DNA of 64,000 nt, taken from NCBI GenBank assembly GCA_963745075.1, contig CAVUWV010000010.1, positions 128,001 to 192,000 of the forward strand, read 5' to 3'. A program made the position numbers and the translations under genes. This document shows positions 3,450 through 31,025 of this stretch, one piece after another. This stretch comes from Candidatus Hydrogenedentota bacterium (GTDB lineage: Bacteria > Hydrogenedentota > Hydrogenedentia > Hydrogenedentales > SLHB01). Numbering within the stretch: the first letter of the stretch is position 1; the number at the start of each line of letters is the position of its first letter. The notes under the pieces are model-generated. The model was not told where the DNA came from. It did no database searches and saw only the letters and a list, made by a program, of their open reading frames with translations.

Positions 3450-3791
3450 TCAGCCGATGGCCGCCCCGCTGGTTTCACCGGTACGGATGCGGATGCAGTC
3501 GGCGAGGTCGATCACGAAGATCTTGCCATCTCCGATTTCGCCCGTCTTGGCGCCTTTGATGATTCCATCGATCGTCGGTTTAACGTAGTCGTCGTTGACG
3601 GCGATCTCGAGGCGCACTTTCTTCAAGAGGTTGACTTCCACGTCCACCCCGCGATAGGACTCGTGGTATCCCATCTGCTGGCCGCACCCGAGCGCGTTGG
3701 TGACGGACATCTTGGTCACTTCCCGTTCGTACAGCGCCTGTTTGACGGCATTGAGCCGTTCCGGCTGAATGTATGCAACGATCAGTTTCAT
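3450..3791 (-). CDS. glnK: P-II family nitrogen regulatory protein
   Basis: T-loop [13 protein letters not shown] and [12 protein letters not shown] signature; directly downstream of amt. Confidence 0.95.
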
Positions 3792-3825
3792 TCAAATTGT
3801 CTCCTTGCCTCGTGAGGCGTCGTTC

Positions 3826-5241
3826 TTATTGCGTGGTGAAGATCTGGAAGCCGCTGTACGCCTCCATACCGTGCTCGCCGATATCCAGGCCGCGGATCTC
3901 TTCGGCTTCGCTGACCCGAAGTCCGATCGTGTATTTCAGCCCGAGGAACAGCACCACACCTGCGCCGAAGGCCCACACGAAGGCGGACACGACACCGATT
4001 GTCTGCGTGGCGAACTGAGCGAACCCGCCGCCATAGAGCAGCCCGCCGTCCAGGTTGAACAGTCCGCAAGACAAGGTGCCCCACGCACCGCATACACCAT
4101 GGACGCTGACTGCGCCCACCGGGTCGTCAATCTTCAGCACGCGGTCGATGAACAGTACGCTGAATACCACCAGAACGCCGGCGATGGCGCCGATCGCGCA
4201 TGCGCCGACGGCGCTTACGGTGTAACACGGCGCCGTGATCGCAACCAGACCGGCCAGCACGCCGTTAAACGTCATCGACGGTTCGGGCTTCTTGAAGATC
4301 ACCCACGACGCCATCATGGCCGTTATCGCGGCGCACGCTGCCGCCAGATTGGTCGTGATTGCGACGTAACCGATCTCACCGTTCGCCGTCGTCGTGCTGC
4401 CCGGATTGAACCCGAACCAGCCGAGCCACAGGATGAACACGCCCAGCGCCGCCAATCCGAAGTTGTGGCCGGGAATTGCTTTCGGCTTTCCATCCGGACC
4501 GTATTTGCCGATGCGCGGACCCAGAATCAGGGCGCCCGCCAAGGCCAGCCAGCCGCCGACCGAGTGCACGACCGTTGAACCGGCAAAGTCGACGAATGCC
4601 GGCAAATGCATGGCCGCCAACTGGCCACCGTCCGGCGCTTCCAACCACCCTGCCGAGGCTCCGTTAAAATCGGCATACAACCCGTTCCACGCCCAGGAAC
4701 CGAAGATGGGGTAAATGAAGGCGCTGATCAATACGCTATACACAAGGTACGACACGAACTTGGTCCGTTCTGCCATGGCGCCCGAAACGATCGTGGCTGC
4801 CGTCGCACAGAAGACCGTCTGAAACAAGAGGAAGGTCCAGGGCCACTGGGAAATCGCGTCACTCGCTCCCCAATTCACATCGCTCAACATAAACCCCGAC
4901 GTTCCGAACAGTCCTTTCGATGCGCCGAACATGATGCCGAATCCGATGACGAAGAACGCCACCGATCCGAAGGCAAAGTCCATCAGGTTCTTCATCAGGA
5001 TGTTCAGAGAGTTCTTCGCCCGGGTCATTCCCATCTCGACCATGGCGAACCCGGCCTGCATGAACATGACCAAGAACGCGGCGACGCAGGTCCACACCGC
5101 GTTCGCGTTGTACTGGAGTTGTTCCTGCACCGCGGCAACGGTGGGCGCTGCCGCGGGGTCGTCCTGGGCTATCGCCCAGGGCGCGCCAATCACCATCAGC
5201 ACCATGGCGATCGGCAAGATTCGTTTGGTTAAGTTAGCCAT
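3826..5241 (-). CDS. amtB: Ammonium transporter
   Basis: FMQAGFAMVE, DFAGSTVVHSVGG, LWLGWFGFNPGS and DDPVGAVSVHGVCG motifs; signal peptide. Confidence 0.97.
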   Translation of the reverse strand: MANLTKRILPIAMVLMVIGAPWAIAQDDPAAAPTVAAVQEQLQYNANAVWTCVAAFLVMFMQAGFAMVEMGMTRAKNSLNILMKNLMDFAFGSVAFFVIGFGIMFGASKGLFGTSGFMLSDVNWGASDAISQWPWTFLLFQTVFCATAATIVSGAMAERTKFVSYLVYSVLISAFIYPIFGSWAWNGLYADFNGASAGWLEAPDGGQLAAMHLPAFVDFAGSTVVHSVGGWLALAGALILGPRIGKYGPDGKPKAIPGHNFGLAALGVFILWLGWFGFNPGSTTTANGEIGYVAITTNLAAACAAITAMMASWVIFKKPEPSMTFNGVLAGLVAITAPCYTVSAVGACAIGAIAGVLVVFSVLFIDRVLKIDDPVGAVSVHGVCGAWGTLSCGLFNLDGGLLYGGGFAQFATQTIGVVSAFVWAFGAGVVLFLGLKYTIGLRVSEAEEIRGLDIGEHGMEAYSGFQIFTTQ

Positions 5242-5333
5242 GCTTCTCAGTCTCCTTTTTCACTCGCTGCGTTCACTTCTGTTTCAGGCCACCGACACCC
5301 GAGTTGTGCGGGATTTCCGCTGGCCGGAATGGG

Positions 5334-5350
5334 AGCAAATGCTATGCCAA
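5334..5350 (-). promoter_or_regulatory. Sigma54 (-24/-12) promoter of amt-glnK
   Basis: Minus strand TTGGCATAGCATTTGCT (GG-N10-GC), about 90 nt upstream of the amt ATG. Confidence 0.8.
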
Positions 5351-5420
5351 CAATCTATGTAGGCGAGAGGAATAAGCAATAAGATATTAGTAGATATGCA
5401 CTTAAATGGAAAATTCTATG

Positions 5421-5499
5421 TTTACGAGTCGGTAGGTCGGTTTGGGTATTCCTACCATCCGGTAGGAAGGGCTGGGGCGCGTCCCTACGCGCCGGTAAC
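5421..5499. promoter_or_regulatory. Three phased TAC-N6-GTA sites (candidate upstream activator sequence)
   Basis: TTTAC-GAGTCG-GTAGG (5421), CCTAC-CATCCG-GTAGG (5451, inside the palindrome TTCCTACC-N4-GGTAGGAA), CCTAC-GCGCCG-GTAAC (5484); offsets 30 and 33 bp. Confidence 0.7.
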
Positions 5500-5522
5500 C
5501 TTTTCGGCGCGGGCGCCTCTCA

Positions 5523-6503
5523 CTACCCGGTCGAGCGGTAATTCCGGGGTTCGATTCCGTACTTGCGAACGCGTAACCCCATAAGCCGCTCGGTGATGCC
5601 CAATTGCTGCGCCGCTCTGGAGCGGTTTCCGTTCGACGCGCGCAACGCATCGATAATCAGCGTGCGTTCCACGGATTCGAGCGTGGCGGGCAGGGAATCC
5701 TCCGTTACGGAAACCGCCGGTTCTGTTTGCTGTACCGGTGGCGGAAGGTGTTCCAGCTCGATCGTGTCCGACGTGCAGAGCATTACGGCGTGTTCGATAC
5801 AACGGTCGAGTTCGGTCAGGTTTCCCGGCCAGGTGTACTCCAGCAGAAGGCTGGCCACGCGGGAGGACAACCGCTGAATCGGTTTTTCGGCCGCTTCCGC
5901 GTATCGGCGTAAGAAGTGTTGCGCCAGCAGCAGGATGTCCGTTTTACGTTCGCGGAGTGGCGGTATCCGGATGGTAACGATCGTCAGTTCGTCGCAGAAG
6001 TCTTTAAGAAACCGGCCGTCTTCGATCAGGCGATCCAACTCGCGCCGGCTGGCGGCGATGACCCGGACGTCGGCCGGTTGTGGCGAATTTGCCCCCGGCT
6101 TCATGAACGAGCGCTCTCGAATGCACCGCATAAGCTTGGCCTGCATCGCTAAGCTGAAATCGCCGATTTCTTCGATGAATAAGGTGCCGCCTTCCGCTTC
6201 TTCGATCTTGCCCTGCGGCGGAACCGACCCGTGCGCAGCCGATGCGGCGCCGAAGAGTTCGCCTTCGACAAACGACTCCGTTACTTCCGGCCAACGGACC
6301 GTCACGAACGGATTGTGCGCACGTGCACTTAGATTGTGGATGGCACGCGCGATCGCCTCCGCGCCGGTCCCGCGCTCACTGCGCAGAAGCACCGCGACGT
6401 TGCCGCGCGCCACGTGCGTCGCCAGGCTGTAGACCTGTTCCATGGCAGGAGAGCGCTCGACCCGGTCAAAGCGGTCTATCTCGTCATCCCGGAAAGCGTT
6501 CAT
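5523..6503 (-). CDS. Degenerate sigma54 enhancer-binding-protein homolog (AAA+ fold plus Fis HTH, no sensor domain, catalytic motifs lost)
   Basis: Start moved to ATG 6503 (GGAG SD, sigma54 promoter just upstream); 326 aa. Walker A reads SERGTGAE, the GAFTGA loop reads AASAAHGS, Walker B reads FIEEI and the R-finger region reads FLKDFCDEL. HTH: LGITERLMGLRVRKYGI. Confidence 0.85.
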   Translation of the reverse strand: MNAFRDDEIDRFDRVERSPAMEQVYSLATHVARGNVAVLLRSERGTGAEAIARAIHNLSARAHNPFVTVRWPEVTESFVEGELFGAASAAHGSVPPQGKIEEAEGGTLFIEEIGDFSLAMQAKLMRCIRERSFMKPGANSPQPADVRVIAASRRELDRLIEDGRFLKDFCDELTIVTIRIPPLRERKTDILLLAQHFLRRYAEAAEKPIQRLSSRVASLLLEYTWPGNLTELDRCIEHAVMLCTSDTIELEHLPPPVQQTEPAVSVTEDSLPATLESVERTLIIDALRASNGNRSRAAQQLGITERLMGLRVRKYGIEPRNYRSTG

Positions 6504-6526
6504 ATAGAAACTCCGGGAGGGGGGAG

Positions 6527-6543
6527 AGCAACGGGCGTGCCAA
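6527..6543 (-). promoter_or_regulatory. Sigma54 promoter of the degenerate EBP gene
   Basis: Minus strand TTGGCACGCCCGTTGCT, a full match to TGGCACG-N4-TTGC. Confidence 0.85.
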
Positions 6544-6678
6544 CTCGGGTTGAGTTGAACCGGTCGCGCGCGGGGCGAACTTTGAGGCTGTATCAACTTC
6601 TTTCGGGAATTGGACTTAGAAGGTCCTCGCCAGATGAACGGTTGGGTTTCAGAGCGGTATGACTCGGATTCAAGCGAG

Positions 6679-6694
6679 CCTACCAAATTGTAGG
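6679..6694. promoter_or_regulatory. CCTAC-N6-GTAGG palindrome (candidate UAS)
   Basis: CCTAC-CAAATT-GTAGG; weaker partial sites at 6646 and 6709. Confidence 0.65.
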
Positions 6695-6825
6695 GAGTCC
6701 GGGGGATTCCAACCAGCACGTACGAACGAATGCGGTGAGAAGCCTGCGGAAAACCGCGCTTTCATTGTCCGTACTTGTCCGTGCAGGTCCGTGTCAGTCC
6801 GGGTAAGGTCGATTTGCCCCCGGTC

Positions 6826-8415
6826 TTACACCAGTCGGGCTGTGCGGTATTGGCGCGGGTTAATATTGTGCTTCCGCACCCGGAGCCCCATGATTCGCTC
6901 GGTAATCCCAGCGACTTCCGCCGCCTTGGCTTTGTTGCCGCGGGAGTTTTTCAGCGCTTCAATCAGCATCTCCCGTTCCACGTTGTCCAATGTGGCTTCG
7001 AGCGTCTCTTTCATGATGGTGCCCGAGGCTTCCGCCGTCTGCAGGGTGGGGGGGAGGTGATGTCCGTGGACCACGTCGTCATTGCTCAGCAACACGGCGC
7101 GTTCGATGCAGTTTTCCAATTCGCGAACGTTGCCGGGCCAATGGTAGCTCGACAGCATGTCGATAGCGGGGGTCGAGATCCGGCGAATGTCTTTTCCGGC
7201 GGACTTGCTGGCTTTCTCGACGAAGTGGTTGGCCAAGTCGAGGATGTCCGCCCGGCGTTCACGGAGCGGCGGGATGTGGATGGGAAACACGTTCAGGCGA
7301 TAGTACAGATCCTGCCGGAACGTTTCGTCTTCCATGAGGGTTTCCAGTTCCCGATTGGTCGCGGCGATGATCCGCACGTCTACCTTGATGGTTTCGGTGC
7401 CGCCGACCCGTTCAAACTCGCGTTCCTGCAGGACCCGCAGCAACCGGATCTGCATCGTCGGTGCGAGATCCCCGATTTCATCCAGGAAGATCGTGCCGCC
7501 ATCAGCCAGTTCGAATCGTCCTTTGCGCTGCTGCAACGCGTTAGTGAAGGCGCCTTTCTCATGGCCGAAGAGTTCACTCTCGATTATGGACTCCGGCAGG
7601 GCCGCGCAATTCACTTTCACGAAGGGCTTGGAGGCCCGCAGGCTGTTGTAGTGGATCGCGCTGGCCACCAGCTCTTTGCCCACGCCGCTTTCGCCGCGGA
7701 TCAGCACGGTCGCGTCGCTCTTGGCCACTTGTCCGATCAGGTCGAAGACCTTCTGCATGGCGTTCGAACGGCCGATGATGTTCGCCGGACGGAATCGATC
7801 TTTCAACTCGTTTTGCAGCCGGAGATTCTCTTCGCGCAGCCGCTGCTGCTCTTCCATGGCGGACTGGCGCAGGCGCACCGCTTGCGCGATCATCGACGCG
7901 ATAATCGAAAGGAGGCGAATGTCTTCGTCCAACGAAACCGGACCCGAAAACAGGCGGTCGACGCTCAGCGCCCCGATGGTCTCATTGCCCAACTTGATGG
8001 GCACACAGATGAAGGAGACTTCGTCCTTCTTGACCTTTTGCCGGGCGCCCGTTTTGTCTAGAAAAGTCGGCTCGTCGGAGATGCGCGGAATCGCCACGGC
8101 GCGTCCCGTTTCCACCACCATCCCGGTGACGCCTTCGCCCCTCCGGTAGTGGCCGCGTTCCCGCTGGCTTTCCGACAGCCCGTGCGCCGCCTCGATGAAC
8201 AGTTCTCCGGTGTCGCGGTTCAACAGCGTGAGGGTACCGCGCACCATTCCCGTGTTGTTGGCGATGGCTTTTAAGAGGGTGCCGACCTCGTCGCGCAAGT
8301 CCAGGCTGCGGTCCAGGGTCTGGCTGATCTCGAAGAGCAGGGACAACTCGCCGAGATCCTTCTTGATATCCGGACCCGTCCGTCGGCGGTGAACCTTCGT
8401 TTTTGTCTGTGACAT
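6826..8415 (-). CDS. NifA/AnfA/VnfA-like sigma54-dependent activator (GAF-AAA+-HTH)
   Basis: N-terminal GAF ([12 protein letters not shown]...SFICVPIK...IGALSVD), [39 protein letters not shown] and a C-terminal HTH. Confidence 0.93.
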
Positions 8416-8447
8416 GATGCAAATCTACCCGAAATGTAAGTAGCTGG

Positions 8448-8493
8448 CTACGGAAACGTACCATATGGTAGGATTCTGATTCGGCAATGTCAA
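8448..8493 (-). promoter_or_regulatory. Sigma70-type promoter of the NifA-like gene, overlapped by two TAC-N6-GTA sites
   Basis: TTGACA (8493-8488)-N17-TACCAT (8470-8465); CTAC-GGAAAC-GTAC (8448-8461) and GTAC-CATATG-GTAGG (8458-8472). Confidence 0.6.
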
Positions 8494-11151: not shown

Positions 11152-11213
11152 CCGGGGATCGCTGCGAGCATTGTTGCGTGGAATGAACGACGTGCCGCAC
11201 AAATGTTCCAGTT

Positions 11214-11283
11214 CGTAATCGTAATCGTAATCGTAATCGTAATCGTAATCGTAATCGTAATCGCGTAATCGTAATCGTAATCG
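11214..11283. repeat. Hexanucleotide microsatellite (CGTAAT)8-CG-(CGTAAT)3
   Basis: Counted directly; lies between convergent genes. Confidence 0.95.
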
Positions 11284-14105: not shown

Positions 14106-15164
14106 ATGAACCAGATGCAGACGAGCGATAACATCATCCGTGCGCCCCTGAACGAAGGTCTATTGGGGGTAAGCAAAGCCATCGCCGAAGTCCGTGAAAT
14201 GGTAGTGCGGTTGGCGCAATCGGATATTACCGTGCTGATAAGCGGCGAGAGCGGTACCGGAAAGGACATCGCGGCCCGCATGCTTCACAAGAACTCCGCC
14301 CGGTACGGAAAACCGTTCATCAAGGTGAACTGTCCCGCGATTCCGGAGAGCATCCTGGAGAGCGAACTATTCGGATACGAACGCGGCGCGTTCACGGGCG
14401 CACGGAGCGCCAAGCCCGGCCGGTTTGAATTGGCGAACCACGGCACGATATTTCTTGACGAGATTGCAGAGACTTCGTACACTGTCCAAGGCAAGCTGTT
14501 GCAGGTACTTGACGGCGAGCCGCCAATGCGCATCGGTGGGGTGAGCCCGATCCCGGTCGATGTGCGCATCGCGGCTGCGACCAACGTCCCGCTGGAGGAC
14601 ACCGTGCGCCGCGGGGCGATGCGGGAAGATTTGTTCTTTCGGCTGAGCGACGTGATCGTTCGGATGCCGTCGTTGCGCGAGCGCCGGGAGGACATCCCAT
14701 TGCTCGCCGAGCACTTCAATTTTAATTACTCCGATCGGTTGGGTAAGCCGTACGAGCCTATCGCGCAAGACTTTCAGGAACGGATCGCGAGTCTCGACTG
14801 GCCGGGAAACGTGCGGGAACTGGGGGCGTGCGTCAAGAAGTTCGTCGCCACCGGCGACCCGGAGACGCTGTTTGGCGATAGCGGTCAATCACCTGAACCC
14901 GTTGCCGTAGCGCTGCGAGACGGCGGTCAAGTCTCGCTGCCCGCGGCCCCGCAACAGGCGGACACCAGCCCGCCTGGGAAAAAGTTCGTATCGTTGAAGG
15001 CGGCAACCCAGAAAGCAATCGAAGAGACGGAGCGGGCACTTATCGAGGAAGCGTTGCGTTATACCTTGTGGAATCGTCGAAAGGCGGCCAAACTGCTGGA
15101 AATCAGCTATAGTTCGTTGTTGCGCCGCATCGACGCCTACCATATTGGGAAGGACAATGGGTAG
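14106..15164 (+). CDS. Sigma54-dependent activator lacking an N-terminal sensor domain
   Basis: [35 protein letters not shown] and an HTH (WNRRKAAKLLEISY); start set downstream of the sigma54 promoter. Confidence 0.88.
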   Translation: MNQMQTSDNIIRAPLNEGLLGVSKAIAEVREMVVRLAQSDITVLISGESGTGKDIAARMLHKNSARYGKPFIKVNCPAIPESILESELFGYERGAFTGARSAKPGRFELANHGTIFLDEIAETSYTVQGKLLQVLDGEPPMRIGGVSPIPVDVRIAAATNVPLEDTVRRGAMREDLFFRLSDVIVRMPSLRERREDIPLLAEHFNFNYSDRLGKPYEPIAQDFQERIASLDWPGNVRELGACVKKFVATGDPETLFGDSGQSPEPVAVALRDGGQVSLPAAPQQADTSPPGKKFVSLKAATQKAIEETERALIEEALRYTLWNRRKAAKLLEISYSSLLRRIDAYHIGKDNG

Positions 15165-15302
15165 CCCGGGATTCCCAGACGCGCGTACGACCGGGTGTGT
15201 ATCCATCGACCATATCGAGGGTTCTGCGTAATGATAGAGAAACCAATTCCGTCAACGTACGCGCGAGAATTGCGGATTAGTACAATTGGAGGAGCCCGCA
15301 GC

Positions 15303-16562
15303 ATGAGCCGATTTGCAGTGCGCTGGGTCGTGATACTGATTTTTGTGGTGGTGTGGTCCGTCACTCCCGATGCCACCGCGTTCCCATGGGGAAAGAAGAA
15401 GCGGGTGGACCCGGAGGATTTAGTTCGGGGAGTCCGTTCGGAGGTTGTCGAGGATCATGCAACCATCGACATTCCCGGCGAGGGGAAAATAGAAACGCCC
15501 GAGCCGGATGAATTCGCAGAAAATGGACCGATTCCGGAATCCCTTCCGGATACCGAATACACCATTGGGCCGGGGGACGTAATAGGTTTTCAGTCCTTTG
15601 ACGACCCGTCCCTGTCGCGAGAGTCGGTCGTCGTTTTGTTTGATGGCACCTTGTCCCTTCCCCTGATTCCGGATCTGAATGTGAACGGATTGACCCGCGA
15701 GGAAGCGGAGAAGAAGATCCACGACTCCTATGCCGATGGGGTCTTCAAGGACCCCCAATTGACGGTTAGCGTGCGGACCACGGGCAGCAAGTACTATTAC
15801 GTGTTGGGTGACGTGCTGCGCGCGAGCCGGTATCCCTACGAGCAACCGATCAGCGTTCTCGCGGCGATCAACATCGCAGGCGGGCTTCGCACGTCTTCCC
15901 GGTCCGATGGCCAGGACGTTGCGGCGTCCCCGGGAACGCTCACCACTGCCTTTATCATTCGCGACCGCCACGGCAAACGGCAGGTCATCGAGCTCGATCT
16001 CAGCTATCTGACCAACAAGGGTCCGCACCCGTCGGAGACGCTCGTGTTGCCGGGCGACTTTGTGTACATCCCCGAAGGCGTCAACCTCGTTTATGTGTTG
16101 GGCGAGGTGCGCAATCCAAACGTATTCCAGTTAGCGGAAGGTCAGACCCTTACCCAGACACTGACTCGCGCCGGCGGGCCCGTCGAGAGTACCGGGAAGC
16201 TGAAGAGCGTGGTGCTCATGCGCGAAGTGGACAGCACCCATCGCGACGTCCTCGTAATCAATTGGAAGGAGATTATGCGGACTGGGTACGACATTCCACT
16301 ACGGCCCGGGGACGTTGTCTATGTGCCTCGAAAAGGGTTGGTTCGACTCGACGAGTTCGTGTCGCGGGTAACGGGGCCGCTGTCACAAGTCATGGGACTT
16401 TATTCGCAGTACTGGGATACCTACTATGCTGAAGACCGCAACAAGATTTTGGTCGACACGAGCACCGGAAACGGAGCGGTTGGTATCCTGCAGAACGTGC
16501 GGAACTTCGGCCAATTGCTGCAACAATTTCAGACCAGTGGACAACCGATCCCGACGCCTTAG
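15303..16562 (+). CDS. Polysaccharide export protein (Wza/OPX family, SLBB domains)
   Basis: YTIGPGDVI, DGTLSLPLI, VYVLGEVRNP and LRPGDVVYVP; GGAGG SD. Confidence 0.9.
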   Translation: MSRFAVRWVVILIFVVVWSVTPDATAFPWGKKKRVDPEDLVRGVRSEVVEDHATIDIPGEGKIETPEPDEFAENGPIPESLPDTEYTIGPGDVIGFQSFDDPSLSRESVVVLFDGTLSLPLIPDLNVNGLTREEAEKKIHDSYADGVFKDPQLTVSVRTTGSKYYYVLGDVLRASRYPYEQPISVLAAINIAGGLRTSSRSDGQDVAASPGTLTTAFIIRDRHGKRQVIELDLSYLTNKGPHPSETLVLPGDFVYIPEGVNLVYVLGEVRNPNVFQLAEGQTLTQTLTRAGGPVESTGKLKSVVLMREVDSTHRDVLVINWKEIMRTGYDIPLRPGDVVYVPRKGLVRLDEFVSRVTGPLSQVMGLYSQYWDTYYAEDRNKILVDTSTGNGAVGILQNVRNFGQLLQQFQTSGQPIPTP

Positions 16563-16586
16563 CTCACGAGATAGGAACATATTGCC

Positions 16587-18917
16587 ATGACGACCGATTT
16601 TACAAGCGATGTTTCCGTAACGTCACTGGGCCAGGCGGGTGCGGCCGGGGTGTCGCCGCGTAACCTCAATTTTAAGCGGTTGATTCGCATGCGCGGACCG
16701 CTGATGATCTTGGTCGCGGTGGTGGTCGCGCTACCGTTGCTGGTGGCCGTCTGGTTTGTCGTTCCGCGGGAGTACAACGCGACTGCCCGCATCCGCTTCT
16801 CCAACAGCCGGCCTACCGTGCTGACCAATACCGGCGGCACGGCGATTTCCTCGGACTACGTGACCCACGTTCAGACGCAGGTCAATATTATCAAGGGGGC
16901 GGCCGTGCTGGGCCGGGTGGTTGAACGACAAGACATTCGGAATCTGCCGCTGATCCAGAAACAGGCCGATCCGTTGCTGTTTCTGGAAAACAACGTATCG
17001 TCGCGACTCATCCCCATGACCGAACTCGTGGAAGTTTCATTTCAATCCAGCGATCGCGAAACCGCCATGGCGATTGTGCAGGCCACGGTGGACGAGTACT
17101 TGAAGTTCGCCACCTCTGCCGAAAAGGCCCGCAACGATACGATCACGCGTCAGCTCATCGATGAGCGCGATACCCTCGATAAGCGCGTTACGGACCTGCG
17201 CGCCGCGGTGACCGAAAAACGCGAAGCCATCCGCGGCGTGCAATTGCCCGGCGTCAACAGCGTGGACGCCGAGACTCGTGCCTACTACGACAACCAATCC
17301 AAGGCGCTGAGTGACAAGACGACGGCCGAGAAGAAGATCGAACAAATCGAAAAGGAAATCAGCGATATCGAATCCTTGATGGCCGAGCAGGAGAAGAATC
17401 CCGAGCAGCCGATTTACAAGTACGGCGTGGAAGAGGCCGTCACGCAGGATAATGCCGTGGTCGTACAGACTCAGATGCTGGCCACCCACGAGGCGGATTT
17501 GGCGCAGGCCAAGAGCCGGTACGTCGAGGATCATCCCCAAGTCCGATTGAAAACGGAAGCCCGCGACGCGTCCAAGAAGGAACTGGTCCAGGCGCAAGCC
17601 ACCGCCCGCGCCAAAATCCTCCGGTCCCGCTACGAACAGAAGAGGGAAGAGTTGGATACGGCGCACAAAGCCCTGGAAGATGCCGAGCAACGTATTGCGG
17701 ATTTTGACGCGGAGCTGGAGAAGCAATCGGAAGAGTCCGTGGAAGTGACCAAAGCGTTGACCGCCGTGCGCGAGGCGGAAGAGTCGTTGAACGACGCCCG
17801 CGACGACCTCAAGACGGTCCAGGACCGAATTCGATCGCTGCACGTGGAAAGCCGGGCCCCTGCCACCGTGGAAGTTGCCGTCGGCGCCCATGCCCCCACC
17901 GAGCCGGATTATGGAAAACGGCTGAAATATATGGCGCTCGTGATGATGGGCTCCTGTGGCGTCGGGTTTGGCATCGGAATGTGGCGTGAGATCACCGACC
18001 AACAGGTCCGGTCCGCCCAGGACATCGGCTACTGCACCGAACTGCCGTTAATGGGAGTGATTCCACACGCGAGCGTGGACAAGATCCCCGAGAACGCGAA
18101 CCTGGCAACAATCGCCGCCGATCACCCCGACTGCATTTCGGCCGACGCCGTTCGCCGCGTCATAACGCGCATCATCTATCCGCCCGAGGGTTCTGCCGAG
18201 TTGAATACCTGTCTCGTAACCAGTGCGAGTCGCGGCGACGGCAAGACGACCATTGCGTGCAATCTGGCCATCGCGCTGGCCCAGGCCAATCGCCGGGTGC
18301 TGTTGGTGGATTTGAGCGCGCGCCGTCCCAACGTCGAAAAACGCTTGGGTCTGGAGCCCGCAGAAGGCCTCAGCGAAGTCTTCACGCGAGATATCCGAAC
18401 CGAAGACGCCATCCGGGAATCCCAATACCCGAATTTGTCGGTGCTGGGGCCGGGTCTGAACGGAAAAGTGTTGATTGGGCGTTTAGCTTCGCGAGAAACG
18501 GTTCAGTTCCTGGAACAGGCAGAAGAGGCGTTTGAACACGTGATTATCGATACGCCGCCCGTGTTGCTGATGTCGGATGCCAAACTTCTCGCGCCGATTG
18601 TGGATGGGGTGATCGTCGTTGTGGGCGCCGAGGTGTCCATGCTGGGCATGGTCCGTCGCACGTTGCGTGACCTCCAGCAGATCGGCTCGAACGTAGTCGG
18701 CGTGGTTTTGAACGGAGTGAAACATATGCCCGGCGGCTACATGCGCCGCAATCTGACCAGTTACTACAACTACGGGTCCGAACACACCGATGTCCGGCCC
18801 GGCGACGACCAACCGCTCCGTCCCGAGCCGGTAACCGATGCGGACGCGGAGGATATGCCTTCGATCATGCTGGTGGACGACGATGACGGTGTGCGGCCGA
18901 AGCGTGACGAATTCTGA
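16587..18917 (+). CDS. Polysaccharide co-polymerase / BY-kinase (Wzc/GumC-like)
   Basis: Two TM helices around a coiled coil, Walker A SASRGDGKTT, VIIDTPP and a Tyr cluster (SYYNYG). Confidence 0.92.
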   Translation: MTTDFTSDVSVTSLGQAGAAGVSPRNLNFKRLIRMRGPLMILVAVVVALPLLVAVWFVVPREYNATARIRFSNSRPTVLTNTGGTAISSDYVTHVQTQVNIIKGAAVLGRVVERQDIRNLPLIQKQADPLLFLENNVSSRLIPMTELVEVSFQSSDRETAMAIVQATVDEYLKFATSAEKARNDTITRQLIDERDTLDKRVTDLRAAVTEKREAIRGVQLPGVNSVDAETRAYYDNQSKALSDKTTAEKKIEQIEKEISDIESLMAEQEKNPEQPIYKYGVEEAVTQDNAVVVQTQMLATHEADLAQAKSRYVEDHPQVRLKTEARDASKKELVQAQATARAKILRSRYEQKREELDTAHKALEDAEQRIADFDAELEKQSEESVEVTKALTAVREAEESLNDARDDLKTVQDRIRSLHVESRAPATVEVAVGAHAPTEPDYGKRLKYMALVMMGSCGVGFGIGMWREITDQQVRSAQDIGYCTELPLMGVIPHASVDKIPENANLATIAADHPDCISADAVRRVITRIIYPPEGSAELNTCLVTSASRGDGKTTIACNLAIALAQANRRVLLVDLSARRPNVEKRLGLEPAEGLSEVFTRDIRTEDAIRESQYPNLSVLGPGLNGKVLIGRLASRETVQFLEQAEEAFEHVIIDTPPVLLMSDAKLLAPIVDGVIVVVGAEVSMLGMVRRTLRDLQQIGSNVVGVVLNGVKHMPGGYMRRNLTSYYNYGSEHTDVRPGDDQPLRPEPVTDADAEDMPSIMLVDDDDGVRPKRDEF

Positions 18918-19072
18918 GGCGTGTGAAGGAATGGCTCTATGCTCGGGAAGGATTCCCGTCTGCCGGTGACAGGCCATGTCGTCCCCTTCTCCGCATACGC
19001 GCGGGAGGAACCGAACGCATGAGGGGACACCCATTCGGTAACCCCATGACCCTCACGTCGATAGGCGGTGGT

Positions 19073-19858
19073 ATGCAAGGCACAACGGAAAAAACGGTCG
19101 AACTGTTCGGCGTCCGGTTTAACGACCTGACGTTTGACGAATTGTGCAGCCGTGTCCTCCGTTTCGTTCGTGCTGGACAACGTTCCTATATGGTGACCGC
19201 CAACGTCGATCATATCTGCCGGTGTCAAACGGATGCCGCCTTTCGCGAGGCATACGCCAATGCCGGCACCGTCGTTTGTGACGGGAAACCCTTGATTTGG
19301 ATGTCTCGACTGCTGGGCCGGCCGCTCCGGGAAAAACTGAGTGGATCAGACCTCGTGGTCGCCTTGTCGGAGTTCGCCGCCAATGAAGGGCTCAGCGTGT
19401 TTCTGTTCGGGGCCGCGGAAGGCGTGGCCGTTCAGGCCGCGGACAATCTTCGGAGCCGTTTTCCGGAACTGAAGGTGGCGGGCGTATGCAGTCCGCCCAT
19501 GGGGTTCTATGCGGACGACGGCATGAACGCGGATGCGGTCCGCACAATTGCGGAAACGTCACCGCACATTTGTTTCGTTGCCCTCGGCTCGCCCCAGCAG
19601 GAACTGTGGATGAATCGCTGCCATCAACTATGCAACACCACGGTCCTGATAGGAATCGGCGCTTCATTCGATTTCCTTGCGGGCCGGGTGAAGCGCGCGC
19701 CGCGTTGGATGCAGCAAGGCGGCGTGGAATGGGTATGGCGGTTGTATCAGGAACCGCGCCGTCTGTGGCGCCGGTATCTGGTGGATGACATGAAGATCGT
19801 TGGATTGTTGTGGCGCGAACTGCGACGGAATCGCAACCGCCAAACCCGGATGACATAG
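19073..19858 (+). CDS. WecB/TagA/CpsF glycosyltransferase (GT26)
   Basis: VTANVDH, CDGKPL, GSDL, ALGSPQQE, GIGASFDF and EPRRLWRRY. Confidence 0.92.
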   Translation: MQGTTEKTVELFGVRFNDLTFDELCSRVLRFVRAGQRSYMVTANVDHICRCQTDAAFREAYANAGTVVCDGKPLIWMSRLLGRPLREKLSGSDLVVALSEFAANEGLSVFLFGAAEGVAVQAADNLRSRFPELKVAGVCSPPMGFYADDGMNADAVRTIAETSPHICFVALGSPQQELWMNRCHQLCNTTVLIGIGASFDFLAGRVKRAPRWMQQGGVEWVWRLYQEPRRLWRRYLVDDMKIVGLLWRELRRNRNRQTRMT

Positions 19859-19878
19859 TGCGACGAGGTCGTTAGTTT

Positions 19879-22800
19879 ATGGTTGGATCATTATGGAAGT
19901 GGATTGTAGGTGCCATCGTGCTCATTGCAGTGCTCGCGGTGGGGGCGTATTTCGGACTCGAAATGTACATCGCGCACCGCAACCAGCAATGGCTGGCGGA
20001 AGCGGACGCAGCGTACGACTCCGGCGATTGGCAATTGGCCAAGAATTACTTCGAACGCTACATTCCGCAGGACAAAGATAACGTGGAACTCTTGCTGCGC
20101 TACGCCGATGCGTGCCAGCGCGTATTGAACGGTCGTGTGGCGGCGCTACAAGGGGCCGCTACCGCGTACCAGCAGGTGCTTACCCTCGATCCGGACAATC
20201 GGGAGATTCGCGAAAAGCTACTCCGTCTGTACAAGAAGATGGGGGCGTGGGGGAACCTCGAGTACTACACGGAAGAATGGTTGTCTTCCCACCCCGACGA
20301 CCCGGAACTCAGGTACGACCATGCGCTCGCACTTGACCGGCTCGGCCGTCGTGACGAAGCCATCGAGGAATACCGGATGCTCGCCGAGGCGAACACTGAC
20401 TATTCGCAAGCTTACGCCGACTATGCCCGGCTGCTCCACGATCGCGGCCTCGACATCGAGGCCGAAAAAGTCTTGCGCGACGCGGTCGAGCGACGGCCGA
20501 ATGACGCACAAGTCCGGATCGATTACGCCCGTTTTCTGGCCCGAAAACGCGATTGGGACCAAGTGGATGCGTTGCTCCAGGAAGCCATCACGATGGCGCC
20601 CGACAATCCCGACGTATTGATCGCGCAAGCGCAGGCGGCCGGCCTTCGCGAGAATTATGACCAAGTCATCGAGTGCCTGCGCAAAGCCACCATAGTCGAT
20701 CCGGACAACGCCACCGCTCACCTCATGCTGGCGGGCGCCTACGTGGCCATGGACGATGTTCCCAGCGCGGTGGATACCTTGCGCGACGTCGATCCGATCG
20801 TGCAGGTCGACAATCCCTCGATTCTGATCACGCTGGGCGATTTGCAACTGAGTCTGCGCCAGTTCGACGAAGCCCATGCAACACTCCAACGATACACTAA
20901 CGCGTATTCCGAACAGCTTCCGGTCAATGAGTATTTTGCCGCCAAAGAACTGCTCGTGAAAGGGAGCCCCCGCGACGCCATCAAGAAACTGGCAACCGTC
21001 GTGGAACTCCGCCCGAATTTCCTCCAAGCGCAATACACGTTGGCCGTCGCTTATATTGACGCAGGCGACATGGAACTGGCCAGAAACGCCCTCGATGCGT
21101 ACCTGGACAAGAATCCGAGCGACGTACGCGCTCGTGACCTGCTCCTGCGGAATTTCGGCGAGCCGATTTCGTATGAGGATACCGTCGCGCGTGCCAATGA
21201 AACCCTGGACAACGCCGATGCGGGCGCCGAAGCGCTCTACGCCGCTGGATTCGCGCTCTTTGAAATGTCCCGCCGGTCGGGCGCGCTCGAATCCAACCAG
21301 GACACCATCCGGCGATTGCTGCGGCGCAGCATCGAAAAGGCGCCCCGGAAAGCCAACGCCTACCGGACCCTGGTGGAACTCGAGTTGTCTGACGGCCAGA
21401 TTCGCAACGCCTCCAGTATCGTGGATGAGGCCACGCAGGCGGGCGTTCCCGAATCCGACCTCGCGAAGCCGCGCGTGGCAATCGCACTGGCATCCGGCGA
21501 TAACGACAAAGCGCACGAGATCGTCTCGGAATCGTTCGCGGACACGGCCGTGCCCGCCGTTGAAACGTACATCGAGTGGGGGCAGTTTCTCGCGTCCCAC
21601 GGTGCGTACGACGAGGCGGCGAGCGTGCTGGATGAAGGCGCGAGCAAAATTCCCGGCGAGGACGCCAAGAACAAACTCGCATTGGTCCGCATATCTCTGG
21701 ACACCCGGCGCGGCAATATCGACGACGCCATCAAACGCTTGCAGGAACTCGATGCGCAAGTGCCGCTCGACAGCCCCCAGCGTCACGAATTCAATGCCGC
21801 GCGATTGGAGGTCGTTCAGTATTTATTGGGGTCCGATTCCGGCGAAGGAGGCGACCGCGTCGTGTCTCTTGCAGACGCGGTCCGTAAAGAGGAACCGGAC
21901 AATTCCGTCCTCAAGACCATCGACGGCTTTCTTCTTTTGCGAAAAGATCCACCGGACGTGGACCAGGCCAAAACGTTGTTCGAAAGCGCCGCAGCCGCGA
22001 GCCCGCGCGACGTGAATGCCTTTTGGGGCCTGGCCCGAGTGGCCTCTCTGGAACAAGACTATCCCCGTGCGCTGGTCTTCGCCGAGCGGGCGGCCGCGCT
22101 GGCTCCGGATGTTCCTGCATTGCAACTTCAGCTCGGCGAAATCCTGTCCGCCTTGGGCCGGCGTTTGGAAGCGGAGAAAGCGCTCAAACAAGTGTTGAAA
22201 GATGAACCGCAGAATCTGCGTGCCCTCCAGCTCCTGATCGGGAGTTTGATCGATCGAAAACAGATTCGACAGGCCCGGGAGCTTCTGGCCCAACTGGAGC
22301 GCGACAATGGTTTGGATCCGGCCGACGCGGCTGCCGTACGCAGCCTGCGCGGCCGATTGCTGATGTCGCAAGGGGACAACGTGGAAGCCGAACAACTGCT
22401 CAGGGAGCAGTACGCGAACGATCCGGACAACATCGATTTGGCCCGAAACCTCGCCAGGACGATGCTGAACCAGGGGCGCTCGGAAGAAGCCGTTCGGTTC
22501 CTGGGTGAATTCGCGCAGAAGCATGCATCTCGGCCCGAAGGATGGGTGGCGCTCGCCCGGCTCTACACGACCGAAGGTGGCGATGCGAACCTTGCGCGGG
22601 CCTCTACGGCACTGACGCGTGCACTCGTCGCAGACCCGCACTTCGCCCCCGCGCTGCGCGACATGCTCGGTGTCCGGATCAAGCAAGGCAACTTGGGCGA
22701 GGCAATCGGCCTCTGCGACCGCTATCTCGAGAAGAGTCCGGACAGTCCGGATATCCTGAACACGAAAGCGCTGCTATTGGCCGATACGCGTGGGCAATTG

Positions 22801-23124
22801 GATGCCGCAGAGACGACCATCGAACGGGCGATTGCGCTGGACAATCAGCCCGAGTACGTGGCTACACGGGGTATGATTCTACTCCGGAAGGGCGAATCGC
22901 GCCGGGCCCTCGAGGATCTGCAGTCCGCGGCCGCGAATATGTCTTCCACCACGGCCACAATCGATTTGGCCCTCGCCGAAGCTTATCTCGCCGAAGGCGA
23001 TCCGTCGTCGGCGCAGCGATACTACAATTCGGCCGTGCGCAAATCAGACCAGGGCGAGCCCGTGGATCGCAGCCGACTCACTCGAGTGGGTCAGATGCTT
23101 GAAAAACAAGGGGCTGCAGCATGA
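19879..23124 (+). CDS. Membrane-anchored TPR-repeat protein (PrsT-like)
   Basis: N-terminal TM helix followed by about 1000 aa of TPR-like repeats; adjacent to the exosortase. Confidence 0.85.
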   Translation: MVGSLWKWIVGAIVLIAVLAVGAYFGLEMYIAHRNQQWLAEADAAYDSGDWQLAKNYFERYIPQDKDNVELLLRYADACQRVLNGRVAALQGAATAYQQVLTLDPDNREIREKLLRLYKKMGAWGNLEYYTEEWLSSHPDDPELRYDHALALDRLGRRDEAIEEYRMLAEANTDYSQAYADYARLLHDRGLDIEAEKVLRDAVERRPNDAQVRIDYARFLARKRDWDQVDALLQEAITMAPDNPDVLIAQAQAAGLRENYDQVIECLRKATIVDPDNATAHLMLAGAYVAMDDVPSAVDTLRDVDPIVQVDNPSILITLGDLQLSLRQFDEAHATLQRYTNAYSEQLPVNEYFAAKELLVKGSPRDAIKKLATVVELRPNFLQAQYTLAVAYIDAGDMELARNALDAYLDKNPSDVRARDLLLRNFGEPISYEDTVARANETLDNADAGAEALYAAGFALFEMSRRSGALESNQDTIRRLLRRSIEKAPRKANAYRTLVELELSDGQIRNASSIVDEATQAGVPESDLAKPRVAIALASGDNDKAHEIVSESFADTAVPAVETYIEWGQFLASHGAYDEAASVLDEGASKIPGEDAKNKLALVRISLDTRRGNIDDAIKRLQELDAQVPLDSPQRHEFNAARLEVVQYLLGSDSGEGGDRVVSLADAVRKEEPDNSVLKTIDGFLLLRKDPPDVDQAKTLFESAAAASPRDVNAFWGLARVASLEQDYPRALVFAERAAALAPDVPALQLQLGEILSALGRRLEAEKALKQVLKDEPQNLRALQLLIGSLIDRKQIRQARELLAQLERDNGLDPADAAAVRSLRGRLLMSQGDNVEAEQLLREQYANDPDNIDLARNLARTMLNQGRSEEAVRFLGEFAQKHASRPEGWVALARLYTTEGGDANLARASTALTRALVADPHFAPALRDMLGVRIKQGNLGEAIGLCDRYLEKSPDSPDILNTKALLLADTRGQLDAAETTIERAIALDNQPEYVATRGMILLRKGESRRALEDLQSAAANMSSTTATIDLALAEAYLAEGDPSSAQRYYNSAVRKSDQGEPVDRSRLTRVGQMLEKQGAAA

Positions 23125-24701
23125 GCACCGAATCCACCACATCCCGCAATTCACAGCCCCGCGACGATCGGACAGCCGCCGAAACCCCGTCCCGGCGCCC
23201 CCCATGGTTTATGGCAAGTCTTTTTATTGTCGCGCTGGTTGTCCTTTACTGGCGGGCGGCCGGCGAGCTTTACACGAACTGGACCTTGACCGATTCGTAC
23301 TACACGCACGGGTTCCTCATTCCCTTCGTCAGCGCCTATTTCATTTGGAAAGACCGCGCGTATCTTTCCAAGCTTCCGATTGCCCCGTCTGCGTCCGGCG
23401 TGGTCTGGATTGCGTTTGCGGCGCTGTTGCTGTTGTTGGGGGACTTTCTGGGCTTCCGCGTATTCGCCCATTTGTCGTTGATTCCCATGCTCGCCGGGAT
23501 GATCGCCGTGCTCCTGGGCGCGCAGTGGGTGCGACGCATGTGGTTTCCGCTGGTATTTCTGATTTTCATGATACCGATTCCGCCGTCATTGACACAGAAC
23601 ATTGCCCTGAAGCTGAAGCTGCTGGCCGCACAAAGTGCCGTGGCACTCGCCAACGCCGTCACGCTGCCCATGGTACAGGAAGGATCCTGGATTCACTTTG
23701 GCGACGACCGCTTGCTCGTTGGAGACGTCTGTGGCGGGCTGCGTTCCTTGATCGCGTTACTGGCATTGGGTGCGGTTTTCGCATACATCAGCAAGGTTCG
23801 GACTTGGGCCAAGGTCTTCATCATGGCCATGGCGGGTCCCATTGCGGTTGCGGCGAACATCGTGCGGATCTTCTTCCTCTGCGTCGTCGCCTACTTCTGG
23901 GGCAGCGAGGTGGCCGGCGGCAAAGTCCACGATTACTCCGGAATCCTGATCTTTGCCGTAGCGATTTTGCTCTTTACCGCGCTGGATGCGCCGCTGCGCC
24001 GCTTCGCTGCGGAGAAGGAGGATTCTGCCGAACCGGGGTCGCCGGCTCCGGCACGTCCCGGCAAATCGCGTCGCGGTCCGATTGCGTTCGCGCTCGCGAT
24101 CCTCATTACCGCTACAGCCGGCCATCTCGGGATCCTTCGCGCCCAAACCCAGGGGCAAGTCGACGCAAGCGCGAAGCCGATCCTTGACATCCCCGCTACT
24201 ATCGTCGATTACAAACAGATGGGCAGCGACAGTGAAGTGGACGAACGCACTCGCGAGATCCTGGAAACCAGTACGATCCTCATTCGCAACTACCAGTCGC
24301 CGGTTACGCATCGTCCCATCCAGTTGAGTATCGTGCACGCGGGGACGACGCGCCGCAGTCTGCACTTTCCCGAGGTCTGCCTGGTGGGTGATGGCTGGGA
24401 AATCGTGAAACAGGATGATGTGCCGGTCGGTATCCTGTTTACCGCACGCCGGCTCGTATTGATGAAAGGAAACCAATACGAAGCGGTGTTGTACTGGTTC
24501 AAAACCGGGGACTACGTAACGGGGAACTTTTTCGCAAACGCGTTATACTGGGCCAAGAACCAGATTACCTTCGGATCGCCCAGCTCCGCGATGATAAAGC
24601 TGAGCACCCCGATCGTCTCCGACGGAGATGCCGCCGCGTTTGCGGCACTCGACGATTTCGCCATGAAATTCACGCCGATTATGATGCAGAAAATCAATTA
24701 G
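23121..24701 (+). CDS. Exosortase fused to an EpsI domain
   Basis: YYTHGFLIP, putative Cys-Arg-His triad (VGDVCGGLRSL, NIVRI, VHDYSG), and C-terminal LHFPEVCLVGDGW plus VLYWF of EpsI. Confidence 0.9.
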   Translation: MSTESTTSRNSQPRDDRTAAETPSRRPPWFMASLFIVALVVLYWRAAGELYTNWTLTDSYYTHGFLIPFVSAYFIWKDRAYLSKLPIAPSASGVVWIAFAALLLLLGDFLGFRVFAHLSLIPMLAGMIAVLLGAQWVRRMWFPLVFLIFMIPIPPSLTQNIALKLKLLAAQSAVALANAVTLPMVQEGSWIHFGDDRLLVGDVCGGLRSLIALLALGAVFAYISKVRTWAKVFIMAMAGPIAVAANIVRIFFLCVVAYFWGSEVAGGKVHDYSGILIFAVAILLFTALDAPLRRFAAEKEDSAEPGSPAPARPGKSRRGPIAFALAILITATAGHLGILRAQTQGQVDASAKPILDIPATIVDYKQMGSDSEVDERTREILETSTILIRNYQSPVTHRPIQLSIVHAGTTRRSLHFPEVCLVGDGWEIVKQDDVPVGILFTARRLVLMKGNQYEAVLYWFKTGDYVTGNFFANALYWAKNQITFGSPSSAMIKLSTPIVSDGDAAAFAALDDFAMKFTPIMMQKIN

Positions 24702-24715
24702 TGAAGGGAACTTCC

Positions 24716-27590: not shown

Positions 27591-27629
27591 GATGTTCGTG
27601 GTATCGGATAACATTCGGATCGTCGTGAT

Positions 27630-29015
27630 ATGAGCGGTCCGATAGCAGCCGGCGCCGTCGGCAGCGAAGACGTGCCTCCGACGGATTTGGGGGAGGTGAG
27701 TTCTCCGTCGACGTCGTTGAGGTCCCTGGCGGTCCGTGGTTCGACGTGGACGCTCGTCGAATACGGGGGCAGTCAAGTACTGCGCCTCGCCACCAACATC
27801 ATTCTCACCCGTCTGCTTGTTCCCGAGGCCTTCGGCCTCATGCTGGTCGTGAACGCGGTGATCCAGGGGCTGGACATGTTCAGCGACCTCGGCTTGGGGC
27901 AGAGTATCATTCAGCACAAACGTGGGGAAAATACATCGTTCCTCCATACTGCCTGGACGATGCAAGTTGGGCGTGGGGTACTGCTGTTTGTGGCCTCTCT
28001 GGTCATCGCGCAGATCAGTACGTACGTGTACGACGACATGCCGGAGTTGCGCTACCTGATCCCGGCGTGCGCCATTGGAACCCTCATCAACGGATTCTGT
28101 TCCGTCAATATGATCTTGTTGAACCGGCGCCTCCAACTGTTTCGGCTGGCGGCGATCAATCTTGGCGTTCAAATCACGACATTGATCTTCATGATCGCGT
28201 GGGCGTTGGTTTCGCCAACGGTATGGGCCCTGGTGAGTGCCCATGTGGTTGCCGGCGTCGCGCGGCTTGTGGCGAGCCACACGATATGTCCCGGTCCCCG
28301 CGCGCGGTTTCATTGGGACCGCGCCGCGGCCTGGTCCGTCTTTCGTTTTGGCCGTTGGATATTCCTCAGTACGGTCTTTGGGTTTGTTGCCATGCGCGGC
28401 GACGCGTTTATTTTCGGGCTTTTCGAAACGAAGACGTTCCTCGGCATCTACGCGGTGGCTATGTTTCTCAATCAAGGGATGGTGCAGGCGCTGCATACGA
28501 TTTCCAGCCGCGTGCTGTTCCCGGTCTATTCGCGCCTCGCCGAATCCGGTCCCGAGCGCTTGCGGCATCAGATGTTTCGGATGCGGGCGGTGCTCATGAT
28601 CGTGAGCGTGCCGTCAATCTGTTTCGTCGTCGTATTTGGCGGCACTATTGTGTCTGTTCTTTACGATGACCGTTATCTCGATGCGGGTTGGATTCTCCAA
28701 CTCCTCTCCGTCGGCGCCGTTGCCTCGATTATCGGGAGTACCATCGGGCCTGTCCTGCTCGCTGTGGGTGATTCGTTTCGCTTCATGCTGCTGATGGCCC
28801 TGCGCACGGTCGTCTTGTTGGCGGGTATGGCGTTGTTCGGTTGGCTTTACGGAACCGTCGGACTTATCTTTGGTGTGGCCATTCCAGATTGCATCACGTA
28901 TCCCATTTTGATCGTCATGGTTCGCAAATACCGGGTTTGGCACTACTGGCTGGACCTGGCCGGTTTTCTCAGCGCACTTATTCTCATACATATAGGTTGG
29001 GCGATATGGTCTTGA
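27630..29015 (+). CDS. Oligosaccharide flippase (Wzx/PST family)
   Basis: LTRLLVPEAFGL, FSDLGLGQSIIQ and many TM segments. Confidence 0.9.
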   Translation: MSGPIAAGAVGSEDVPPTDLGEVSSPSTSLRSLAVRGSTWTLVEYGGSQVLRLATNIILTRLLVPEAFGLMLVVNAVIQGLDMFSDLGLGQSIIQHKRGENTSFLHTAWTMQVGRGVLLFVASLVIAQISTYVYDDMPELRYLIPACAIGTLINGFCSVNMILLNRRLQLFRLAAINLGVQITTLIFMIAWALVSPTVWALVSAHVVAGVARLVASHTICPGPRARFHWDRAAAWSVFRFGRWIFLSTVFGFVAMRGDAFIFGLFETKTFLGIYAVAMFLNQGMVQALHTISSRVLFPVYSRLAESGPERLRHQMFRMRAVLMIVSVPSICFVVVFGGTIVSVLYDDRYLDAGWILQLLSVGAVASIIGSTIGPVLLAVGDSFRFMLLMALRTVVLLAGMALFGWLYGTVGLIFGVAIPDCITYPILIVMVRKYRVWHYWLDLAGFLSALILIHIGWAIWS

Positions 29016-29923: not shown

Positions 29924-29933
29924 GGGCGTCCTC

Positions 29934-31019: not shown

Positions 31020-31025
31020 TCGAGC

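Follow-up and report, generated by a model that had tools for sequence, protein, structure and literature searches.

A 64,000-nucleotide stretch of a Candidatus Hydrogenedentota genome assembly (GCA_963745075.1, contig CAVUWV010000010.1, positions 128,001 to 192,000; hereafter the window) contains a cluster of four genes, encoding a sigma54 activator with GAF, AAA and helix-turn-helix (HTH) domains, a relative of it without the GAF domain, here called the twin, an ammonium transporter (Amt) and a PII protein of the GlnK type (Table 1). A sequence-only reading of the window had described these as four co-oriented genes, and this was borne out. It had also assigned sigma54 promoters with upstream TAC-N6-GTA sites to amt-glnK and to the twin, both of which are present in the sequence, and a sigma70-like promoter overlapped by the same motif to the activator, where the -10 box indeed forms the left half of the site starting at 8459. 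The other TAC-N6-GTA cores start at 5423, 5453 and 5486 (amt), 6681 (twin) and 8449 (activator). Six such sites lie in 708 bp of intergenic DNA, where the genome density predicts 0.06 and 20,000 shuffles gave 0.14 on average and never more than 3. The start codon of the twin lies 39 bp past its sigma54 promoter. Operator sites were scored with a weight matrix. Its training set was 48 TAC-N6-GTA sites chosen by hand in relatives, each close to the start of an activator, twin or amt gene, this genome being excluded.

Table 1. Genes, promoters and operator sites of the four-gene locus (window coordinates)
Feature	Position	Strand	Details
Activator	6826..8415	minus	529 aa; GAF 40-180, Sigma54_activat 213-380, HTH_8; NifA/AnfA/VnfA group
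Twin (pseudo-activator)	5523..6503	minus	326 aa, no GAF; start = ATG at 6503
amt, ammonium transporter	3826..5241	minus	PF00909 403.9 bits; TIGR00836 above cut-off
PII protein, GlnK type	3450..3791	minus	Val at Tyr51 position (YRGVDV)
Sigma54 -24/-12 promoter of amt-glnK	5335..5349	minus	TGGCATAGCATTTGC (5349-5335); kept in relatives
Sigma54 -24/-12 promoter of twin	6528..6542	minus	TGGCACGCCCGTTGC (6542-6528)
Three TAC-N6-GTA sites upstream of amt promoter	5421-5436, 5451-5466, 5484-5499		12.4, 19.1, 9.4 bits; spacing 30 and 33 bp
CCTAC-N6-GTAGG site upstream of twin promoter	6679..6694		22.6 bits; top-scoring site of the genome
Activator sigma70-type promoter	8465..8493	minus	TTGACA-17-TACCAT
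Two overlapping TAC-N6-GTA sites, predicted autorepression operator	8447..8472		8457-8472 (17.6 bits, over -10 box); 8447-8462 (7.1 bits)

The activator and its operator

The activator has the makeup of a bacterial enhancer-binding protein (bEBP), with Walker A and B, the GAFTGA loop, the arginine fingers and sensor II of the AAA+ domain all intact, plus a Fis-type HTH. It passes the NCBIfam nifA model TIGR01817 narrowly (546.9 bits, cut-off 528.85) and is not of the NtrC type, a GAF domain replacing the receiver and TIGR01818 giving 368 bits against a cut-off of 558.6. The recognition helix, TERIMGLR, differs from the NifA-type TPRQI.YR, and the conserved site is TAC-N6-GTA, not TGT-N10-ACA. 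The latter is the NifA consensus and the former the tested AnfA consensus (PMC7294313). AnfA and VnfA have the T.R..(G)LR helix type in common with the activator, and NifA does not. Within this genome, the helix [TS]ER.MG[LI]R occurs in the activator and the twin only.

By its GAF-AAA-HTH layout, related helix and TAC-N6-GTA-type site the activator fits the AnfA/VnfA type, whose members are 47-54% identical to it. It differs from them in its targets here, which are assimilation genes rather than anf or vnf, in its separate clade and in the lack of nitrogenase in the genome assembly; nitrogenase genes as targets, the mark of NifA, AnfA and VnfA, were not found. In a careful tree of 33 rows, in which AnfA and VnfA references were named by position beside anfD-like and vnfD-like matches, the activators cluster with two Spirochaete proteins (97/95), apart from AnfA plus VnfA (100/98) and from NifA (100/99). 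The comparison suggests that AnfA/VnfA specificity is common to a general assimilation regulator.

Homologues at other loci keep similar company. Three loci from named Spirochaete genomes, each with a site and a sigma54 promoter, carry activator-glnA (L050, 68% identical) or activator-amt-glnK (L051, 63%; L062, 53%); at L050 just a partial PII match lies on the opposite strand. Among 80 metagenome homologue loci, a site of at least 12 bits was present at 61, and amt, PII or glnA lay within 5 kb at 44. We consider it highly probable, from these sequence patterns, that the activator binds the TAC-N6-GTA site and activates. Separately, in enterobacterial anf clusters (L136:708-1853, L139:506-1702), AnfA is directly followed by a shorter bEBP-like open reading frame (ORF), which has 35% identity to the activator and a helix of the NifA type, a further pairing of an activator with a short paralogue.

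The activator had also been proposed to repress its own gene, and the geometry in favor of this is conserved. In 23 of 42 loci a TTGA-type -35 box precedes the operator by 21-22 bp, a spacing that is independent of the site matrix and puts the -10 box on the left half-site. Leaving aside one locus that was too short, 36 of 42 Hydrogenedentota loci have a site of at least 10 bits upstream of the activator, a count partly circular with the matrix; a strict sigma54 site was found in just 2 of 44. Judged by this promoter and operator geometry, autorepression is probable.

A predicted nitrogen regulon without NtrC

A scan of the genome gave 112 sites of at least 11 bits, nine of them near a sigma54 site; random positions averaged 0.81 over 2000 draws and gave 5 at most. 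The nine pairs include those upstream of the twin, amt-glnK (two sites), glnB-glnA (C34) and a second glnK-amt operon (C24). Of the remaining four, three precede the genes of a HAD hydrolase and a PRC-barrel protein and a 70-aa ORF, and one lies inside a gene (C16). The circuit had been read as self-contained; this did not hold, as site and sigma54 pairs also precede glnB-glnA and the second glnK-amt, and it is further weakened by synteny, the four-gene order lying on one contig in 4 of 12 twin-bearing genomes and in one metagenome contig. Genes for rpoN and glnD were found in the genome.

PII operons of relatives gave a similar picture. A site of at least 10 bits lies within 700 bp upstream in 33 of 40, against 2.2% of 3000 random windows from this genome. 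The 40 operons, from 25 genomes, were hand-chosen out of 94 PII matches, and in 22 of these genomes no twin was found; for L190, one of the 33, the scanned stretch was longer, and its site lies ~175 bp before a sigma54 site. Operator sites are frequently paired ~30 bp apart. Both this test and the scan of the genome itself are free of matrix circularity.

The earlier suggestion that the activator replaces NtrC is supported by comparison. In neither this genome nor the 135 phylum genomes (top 11 candidates each) did any NtrC pass the TIGR01818 cut-off, and glnB-glnA and both amt/glnK operons have the site upstream. The two best NtrC candidates (476 and 475 bits) do not adjoin nitrogen genes. 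An activator-type match is present in 111 of the 135 genomes, with activator loci inspected for about 45 of the 111, and nifD in 3. Each of these three has a separate GAF activator paralogue just upstream of nif, 51-55% identical and with a different helix. The assembly studied here (89.7% complete) has no PF00148 or nitrogenase component-1 match, and its NifH-family matches are weak at most (best 49.7 bits).

These data bear on the alternative that the activator is a true NifA or AnfA left over from a lost nitrogenase, with another regulator running the general nitrogen genes. Its score above the TIGR01817 cut-off is in keeping with such an origin, and nif genes could be absent from an assembly of this completeness. 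However, the few nifD-positive genomes own a nif-linked paralogue with another helix, the site goes with PII, amt and glnA, and more than half of the metagenome homologue loci have such a gene nearby. We regard the leftover-NifA explanation as very improbable, and the activator is likely a genome-wide nitrogen regulator in place of NtrC, as judged from gene and site distribution.

The upstream or 5' region of the nif-linked activator in the nifD-positive genomes G106, G049 and G048 (L045, L046 and L135) scores for the operator in two of the three (16.8 and 12.8 bits), a hint that in nifD-positive Hydrogenedentota the general regulator may act on nif through a cascade.

Among the remaining site and promoter pairs, the 70-aa ORF (L001:8680-8892 minus, G000:C4) has no Pfam match; a sigma54 promoter and a site of 16 bits lie upstream of it. 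The frame, promoter and a site-like sequence are kept in G003, G004 and G005, with synonymous changes within an invariant C-terminal half. No Rfam family matched the sigma54-driven C4 stretch, and a small RNA reading of it was dropped in view of the conserved 70-aa frame with its synonymous changes; the ORF is a candidate nitrogen-regulated small protein. The HAD-family hydrolase (L297:6458-7255, G000:C24), with a leader of ~500 nt, and the PRC-barrel protein (L296:122-1129 minus) also lie behind a site and a sigma54 promoter and are possible further regulon members. At G000:C17:66260, a consensus sigma54 site stands just before rpoN, accompanied by a weak operator-like site (7.1 bits). Within the window, two operator-like matches at 45339 and 47394 (15.7 and 12.3 bits) fall inside a 2038-aa ORF, unpaired with a sigma54 site, and probably arose by chance.

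The GlnK encoded at the locus has Val at position 51, and related copies in relatives and Spirochaetes (12 loci) have Val, Ile or Thr, while glnA-linked PII proteins keep Tyr51. The former make up a PII subfamily with a TN[AS]LGCGQQ motif, located behind amt and often travelling with the activator (window 3450-3791, L004, L005, L007, L009, L010, L012, L034, L051, L062, L202-L204). Because Val replaces Tyr51, which we take to be the PII uridylylation site, the window GlnK is predicted to escape uridylylation and to read 2-oxoglutarate and nucleotides directly. Control of the activator by GlnK, the second feedback loop of the earlier reading, is an even call, argued by analogy with AnfA and GlnK1 and from the linkage of the PII and activator genes. 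AnfA is proposed to be inhibited by unmodified GlnK1 (PMC12093980).

Elsewhere in the window, about 11 CGTAAT hexamer repeats (11213-11283) occur right behind the stop of a large ORF ending at 11151, and positions 14106-32438 hold a receiver-less bEBP behind a sigma54 site at ~13990, followed by what appears by eye to be an exopolysaccharide export cluster.

The degenerate twin

The twin is 45% identical to the activator over 320 aa, and its named close matches (52-77% identical) are from Ca. Hydrogenedentota. In the window copy the Walker A Lys is changed to Ala, the GAFTGA loop is replaced, Walker B DE has become EE, and the switch Asn, both Arg fingers and the sensor-II Arg are lost. An alignment of 16 twins shows no copy with GAFTGA, the Walker B Asp, the switch Asn, the first Arg finger or the sensor-II Arg; 14 lack the second Arg finger and 10 the Walker A Lys, which the other 6 retain. 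On GAFTGA, Walker B Asp, Arg finger and sensor II, the twin does not qualify as a functional sigma54 activator. Its earlier description as ATPase-dead, a prediction from sequence only, agrees with the residue losses but is weakened by the twins that keep the Walker A Lys.

The DNA-binding part is preserved. The recognition helix reads TER[LM]MGLRV in 16 of 16 twins (ITERLMGLRV in the window copy), and the nonsynonymous divergence (dN) of the HTH is equal in twin and activator (0.091 vs 0.091; 0.052 vs 0.050), with the dN of the twin AAA domain ~5 times higher. The ratio of dN to synonymous divergence (dS) of the twin is ~0.08-0.24 in 15 same-genus pairs, rough values given that dS is often >1; these comparisons indicate that the twin is under purifying selection. 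A structure model predicts a normal AAA+/HTH fold (predicted local distance difference test score, pLDDT, 84; predicted template modelling score, pTM, 0.68), with ZraR 1OJL as top Foldseek match. Twins also have a conserved new stretch, W.E.[TS]E.FVE..LFG. It is very likely, from the sequence of the helix, that the twin binds the same sites as the activator.

A twin was found in 12 of the 135 phylum genomes, spanning 6 genera and 2 families, a lower bound set by the E-value cut and by the scoring of 16 candidates per genome. The proposal that the activator induces its inactive paralogue is consistent with the twin promoters, which have a site in all 12 genomes: it scores at least 10 bits, 146-254 bp upstream of the gene, in 12 of 12 (circular for about half), and the sigma54 promoter is strict in 9 and a near match by eye in 3. 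Synteny is conserved in part, the twin adjoining the activator in 9 of the 12 genomes and amt-glnK following in 7; in 2 the genes are split between contigs and in 1 they are separate. The full order occurs on a single contig in G000, G003, G021 and G029 and at metagenome locus L231. A decaying duplicate with no role would account for the patchy distribution and long branches, but the frame is open in 12 of 12 genomes under low dN/dS, the recognition helix is nearly invariant, and promoter and site are conserved over the 6 genera and 2 families. This explanation is already largely refuted, and we give it next to no weight.

An ESM Atlas search returned generic bEBP clusters only, and a profile search of 1.84 billion representatives found six more GAF-less, GAFTGA-less proteins with the twin helix. 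In a quick tree with long-branch warnings, all 18 twin-type rows lie on one side of a branch (Shimodaira-Hasegawa-like approximate likelihood ratio test, SH-aLRT, 100), and the careful tree groups 6 twins together (100/100). The twin had been called a copy of the activator; it is a paralogue and its members form one clade, but the free tree puts them outside the activator clade. Forcing them into it gave p = 0.056 in the approximately unbiased (AU) test, by which descent as a direct copy of this activator is neither established nor rejected. Four other relatives without GAFTGA but with a similar helix were noted (P0168, P0219, P0248 and P0209), two of them full-length with the N-terminal region kept; the first three lie outside the twin clade where placed, and P0209 is not in the tree. 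Degenerate bEBP forms may have arisen more than once.

Proposed circuit and related systems

Our overall reading, to which we give somewhat better than even chances on the sequence data, is that a master regulator stands in for NtrC and, by inducing a pseudo-activator, sets up a delayed negative feedback. When nitrogen is short, the activator would bind tandem sites and open the sigma54 promoters of uptake and assimilation genes (amt-glnK, glnK-amt, glnB-glnA), repress its own sigma70-type promoter, and induce the twin through the strongest site of the genome. The twin, having no sensor domain, would bind the same sites without contacting sigma54 and damp the output. This could proceed by occupying the upstream sites and the -10 operator of the activator, and/or by joining activator rings through the retained AAA fold. 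The GAF domain probably takes its input from 2-oxoglutarate or a PII protein, and the circuit as a whole would work as a delayed negative loop, limiting or shortening the starvation response. The twin is predicted to be unable to contact sigma54 because GAFTGA is lost, and GAFTGA mutants mostly fail to activate (PMC7175178). An inactive paralogue is known to block an active one when RedR1 and RedR2 are co-expressed (PMC10084136). Our estimate for the net effect of the twin leans moderately toward inhibition.

Several observations weigh against this reading. Seven of the 40 PII operons have no site, a second glutamine synthetase gene (C15) and a fourth PII gene (C25) have no site-plus-promoter pair, and the C16 pair, inside a gene, was rejected as a regulon member and attributed to chance. 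The matrix was trained partly on sites upstream of activator, twin and amt, so that scores of relatives there are partly circular, and the TIGR01818 cut-off may miss a divergent receiver-type regulator. A twin was found in few phylum genomes and at only 1 of 80 activator loci from metagenomes, so that in most cases the regulon works in its absence. Furthermore, co-activation is the usual outcome among known pairs of bEBP paralogues (PMC9542535, PMC10084136), and 55% of the activity of PspF rings remains after 1:1 doping with a GAFTGA mutant (PMC3467059).

The last two points favor a twin that acts as co-activator or scaffold, forming mixed rings and lending DNA-binding domains without the GAF brake, so that the loop would be positive as in HrpR/HrpS, FleQ/FleT and VnfA1/VnfA3. 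The AAA part of the twin is under purifying selection and models as a normal bEBP domain, its conserved new stretch suggests a kept surface, and VnfA3, itself induced by VnfA1, binds the targets of VnfA1 and co-activates there (PMC9542535). In VnfA1/VnfA3, RedR1/RedR2, HrpR/HrpS and FleQ/FleT, as proposed here, a master activator induces a paralogue of the same DNA specificity; hetero-oligomers form and an inactive partner can block the active one (PMC9542535, PMC10084136). Those partners are, however, described as co-activators, and the twin has neither sensor domain nor GAFTGA nor catalytic residues and keeps its HTH, which FleT lacks (PMC9542535, PMC10084136). RedR1 and RedR2 both retain the GAFTGA and catalytic motifs (PMC10084136). 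With GAFTGA, the Walker B Asp and the sensor-II Arg missing in every aligned twin and the second Arg finger in most, the twin could give neither sigma54 contact nor catalysis in trans, and the activator regulon is the same in genomes where no twin was found. We therefore rate co-activation as rather unlikely.

Less likely still is a twin that regulates sigma70-type promoters as a stand-alone DNA-binding protein, serving the repressive or sigma70 arm of the regulon and leaving sigma54 activation untouched. TyrR and NtrX are GAFTGA-less bEBPs that work outside sigma54, and Caulobacter NtrC is described as another. The overlap of the operator with a sigma70-type -10 box, the 103 of 112 high-scoring sites without a nearby sigma54 site and the Walker A Lys of 6 twins would all suit this role. 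Yet the helix is nearly identical to that of the activator, so the twin should occupy the sigma54 upstream sites too, and most of the unpaired sites are weak and may be chance matches.

Against this background, induced negative feedback by the twin remains our preferred explanation. The NtrC regulon includes amtB-glnK and glnA among its targets, with sigma54 promoters and repression of an overlapping sigma70 promoter. The system here is alike in target set, in sigma54 promoters and in its predicted repression of an overlapping sigma70 promoter, and unlike NtrC in an activator without receiver or kinase, in the site and in the added pseudo-activator.

A GAF activator standing in for NtrC is itself an already known prediction, made for DVU1949, whose targets, going by locus tags, presumably include amt-glnB, glnA and gltB. 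This one-component sigma54 activator of Desulfovibrionales has a predicted "nitrogen metabolism and transport" regulon of nine operons, its own among them (PMC4641369). The architecture had been thought undescribed, which stands as far as no report of the twin was found, but not for the GAF activator as general nitrogen regulator, predicted in 2015 (DVU1949, PMC4641369). In both systems a GAF-bEBP goes with sites that precede its own gene as well as nitrogen assimilation genes, and the 16-bp DVU1949 sites share an AC-N6-GT core with the operator here (32 of 117 rows; PMC4641369). The presumed orthologue L171, picked by gene context behind two ORFs that resemble IorA and IorB by eye (the context given in PMC4641369), is a GAF-AAA-HTH protein 44% identical to the activator. 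DVU1949 differs in its helix (VSYRIVNYK), in a looser AT-rich site and in lying outside the activator clade, with an unsettled tree position; its regulon is a prediction, and the passages on it mention no degenerate twin (PMC4641369). A row of supplement 2 labelled as the DVU1949 DNA-binding domain was not used, as it equals a pDV plasmid protein and the domain labels there look shifted (PMC4641369).

Among the top-ranked literature matches, with most subscription papers and regulon databases outside the search, no report was found of this regulator in Hydrogenedentota, of this clade as a general nitrogen regulator with an AnfA-type site, or of a conserved pseudo-activator (a GAFTGA-less twin) induced by its own activator. 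The broadest form of our proposal is finely balanced: a widespread AnfA/VnfA-related clade would be a general nitrogen regulator in Hydrogenedentota, some Spirochaetes and others, with one branch carrying an activator-induced pseudo-ATPase twin as dominant-negative anti-activator.

For a phylum known mostly from metagenomes, the analysis names a likely nitrogen master regulator, its operator and its regulon. Many proteins automatically annotated as "nif-specific activator NifA" come from genomes without nifD, so that this label does not mark nitrogen fixation. Given its small size, the four-gene module could be rebuilt in E. coli. If the proposed role of the twin is true, it would be a naturally conserved, self-induced pseudo-activator, and a new way of shutting off a sigma54 response.

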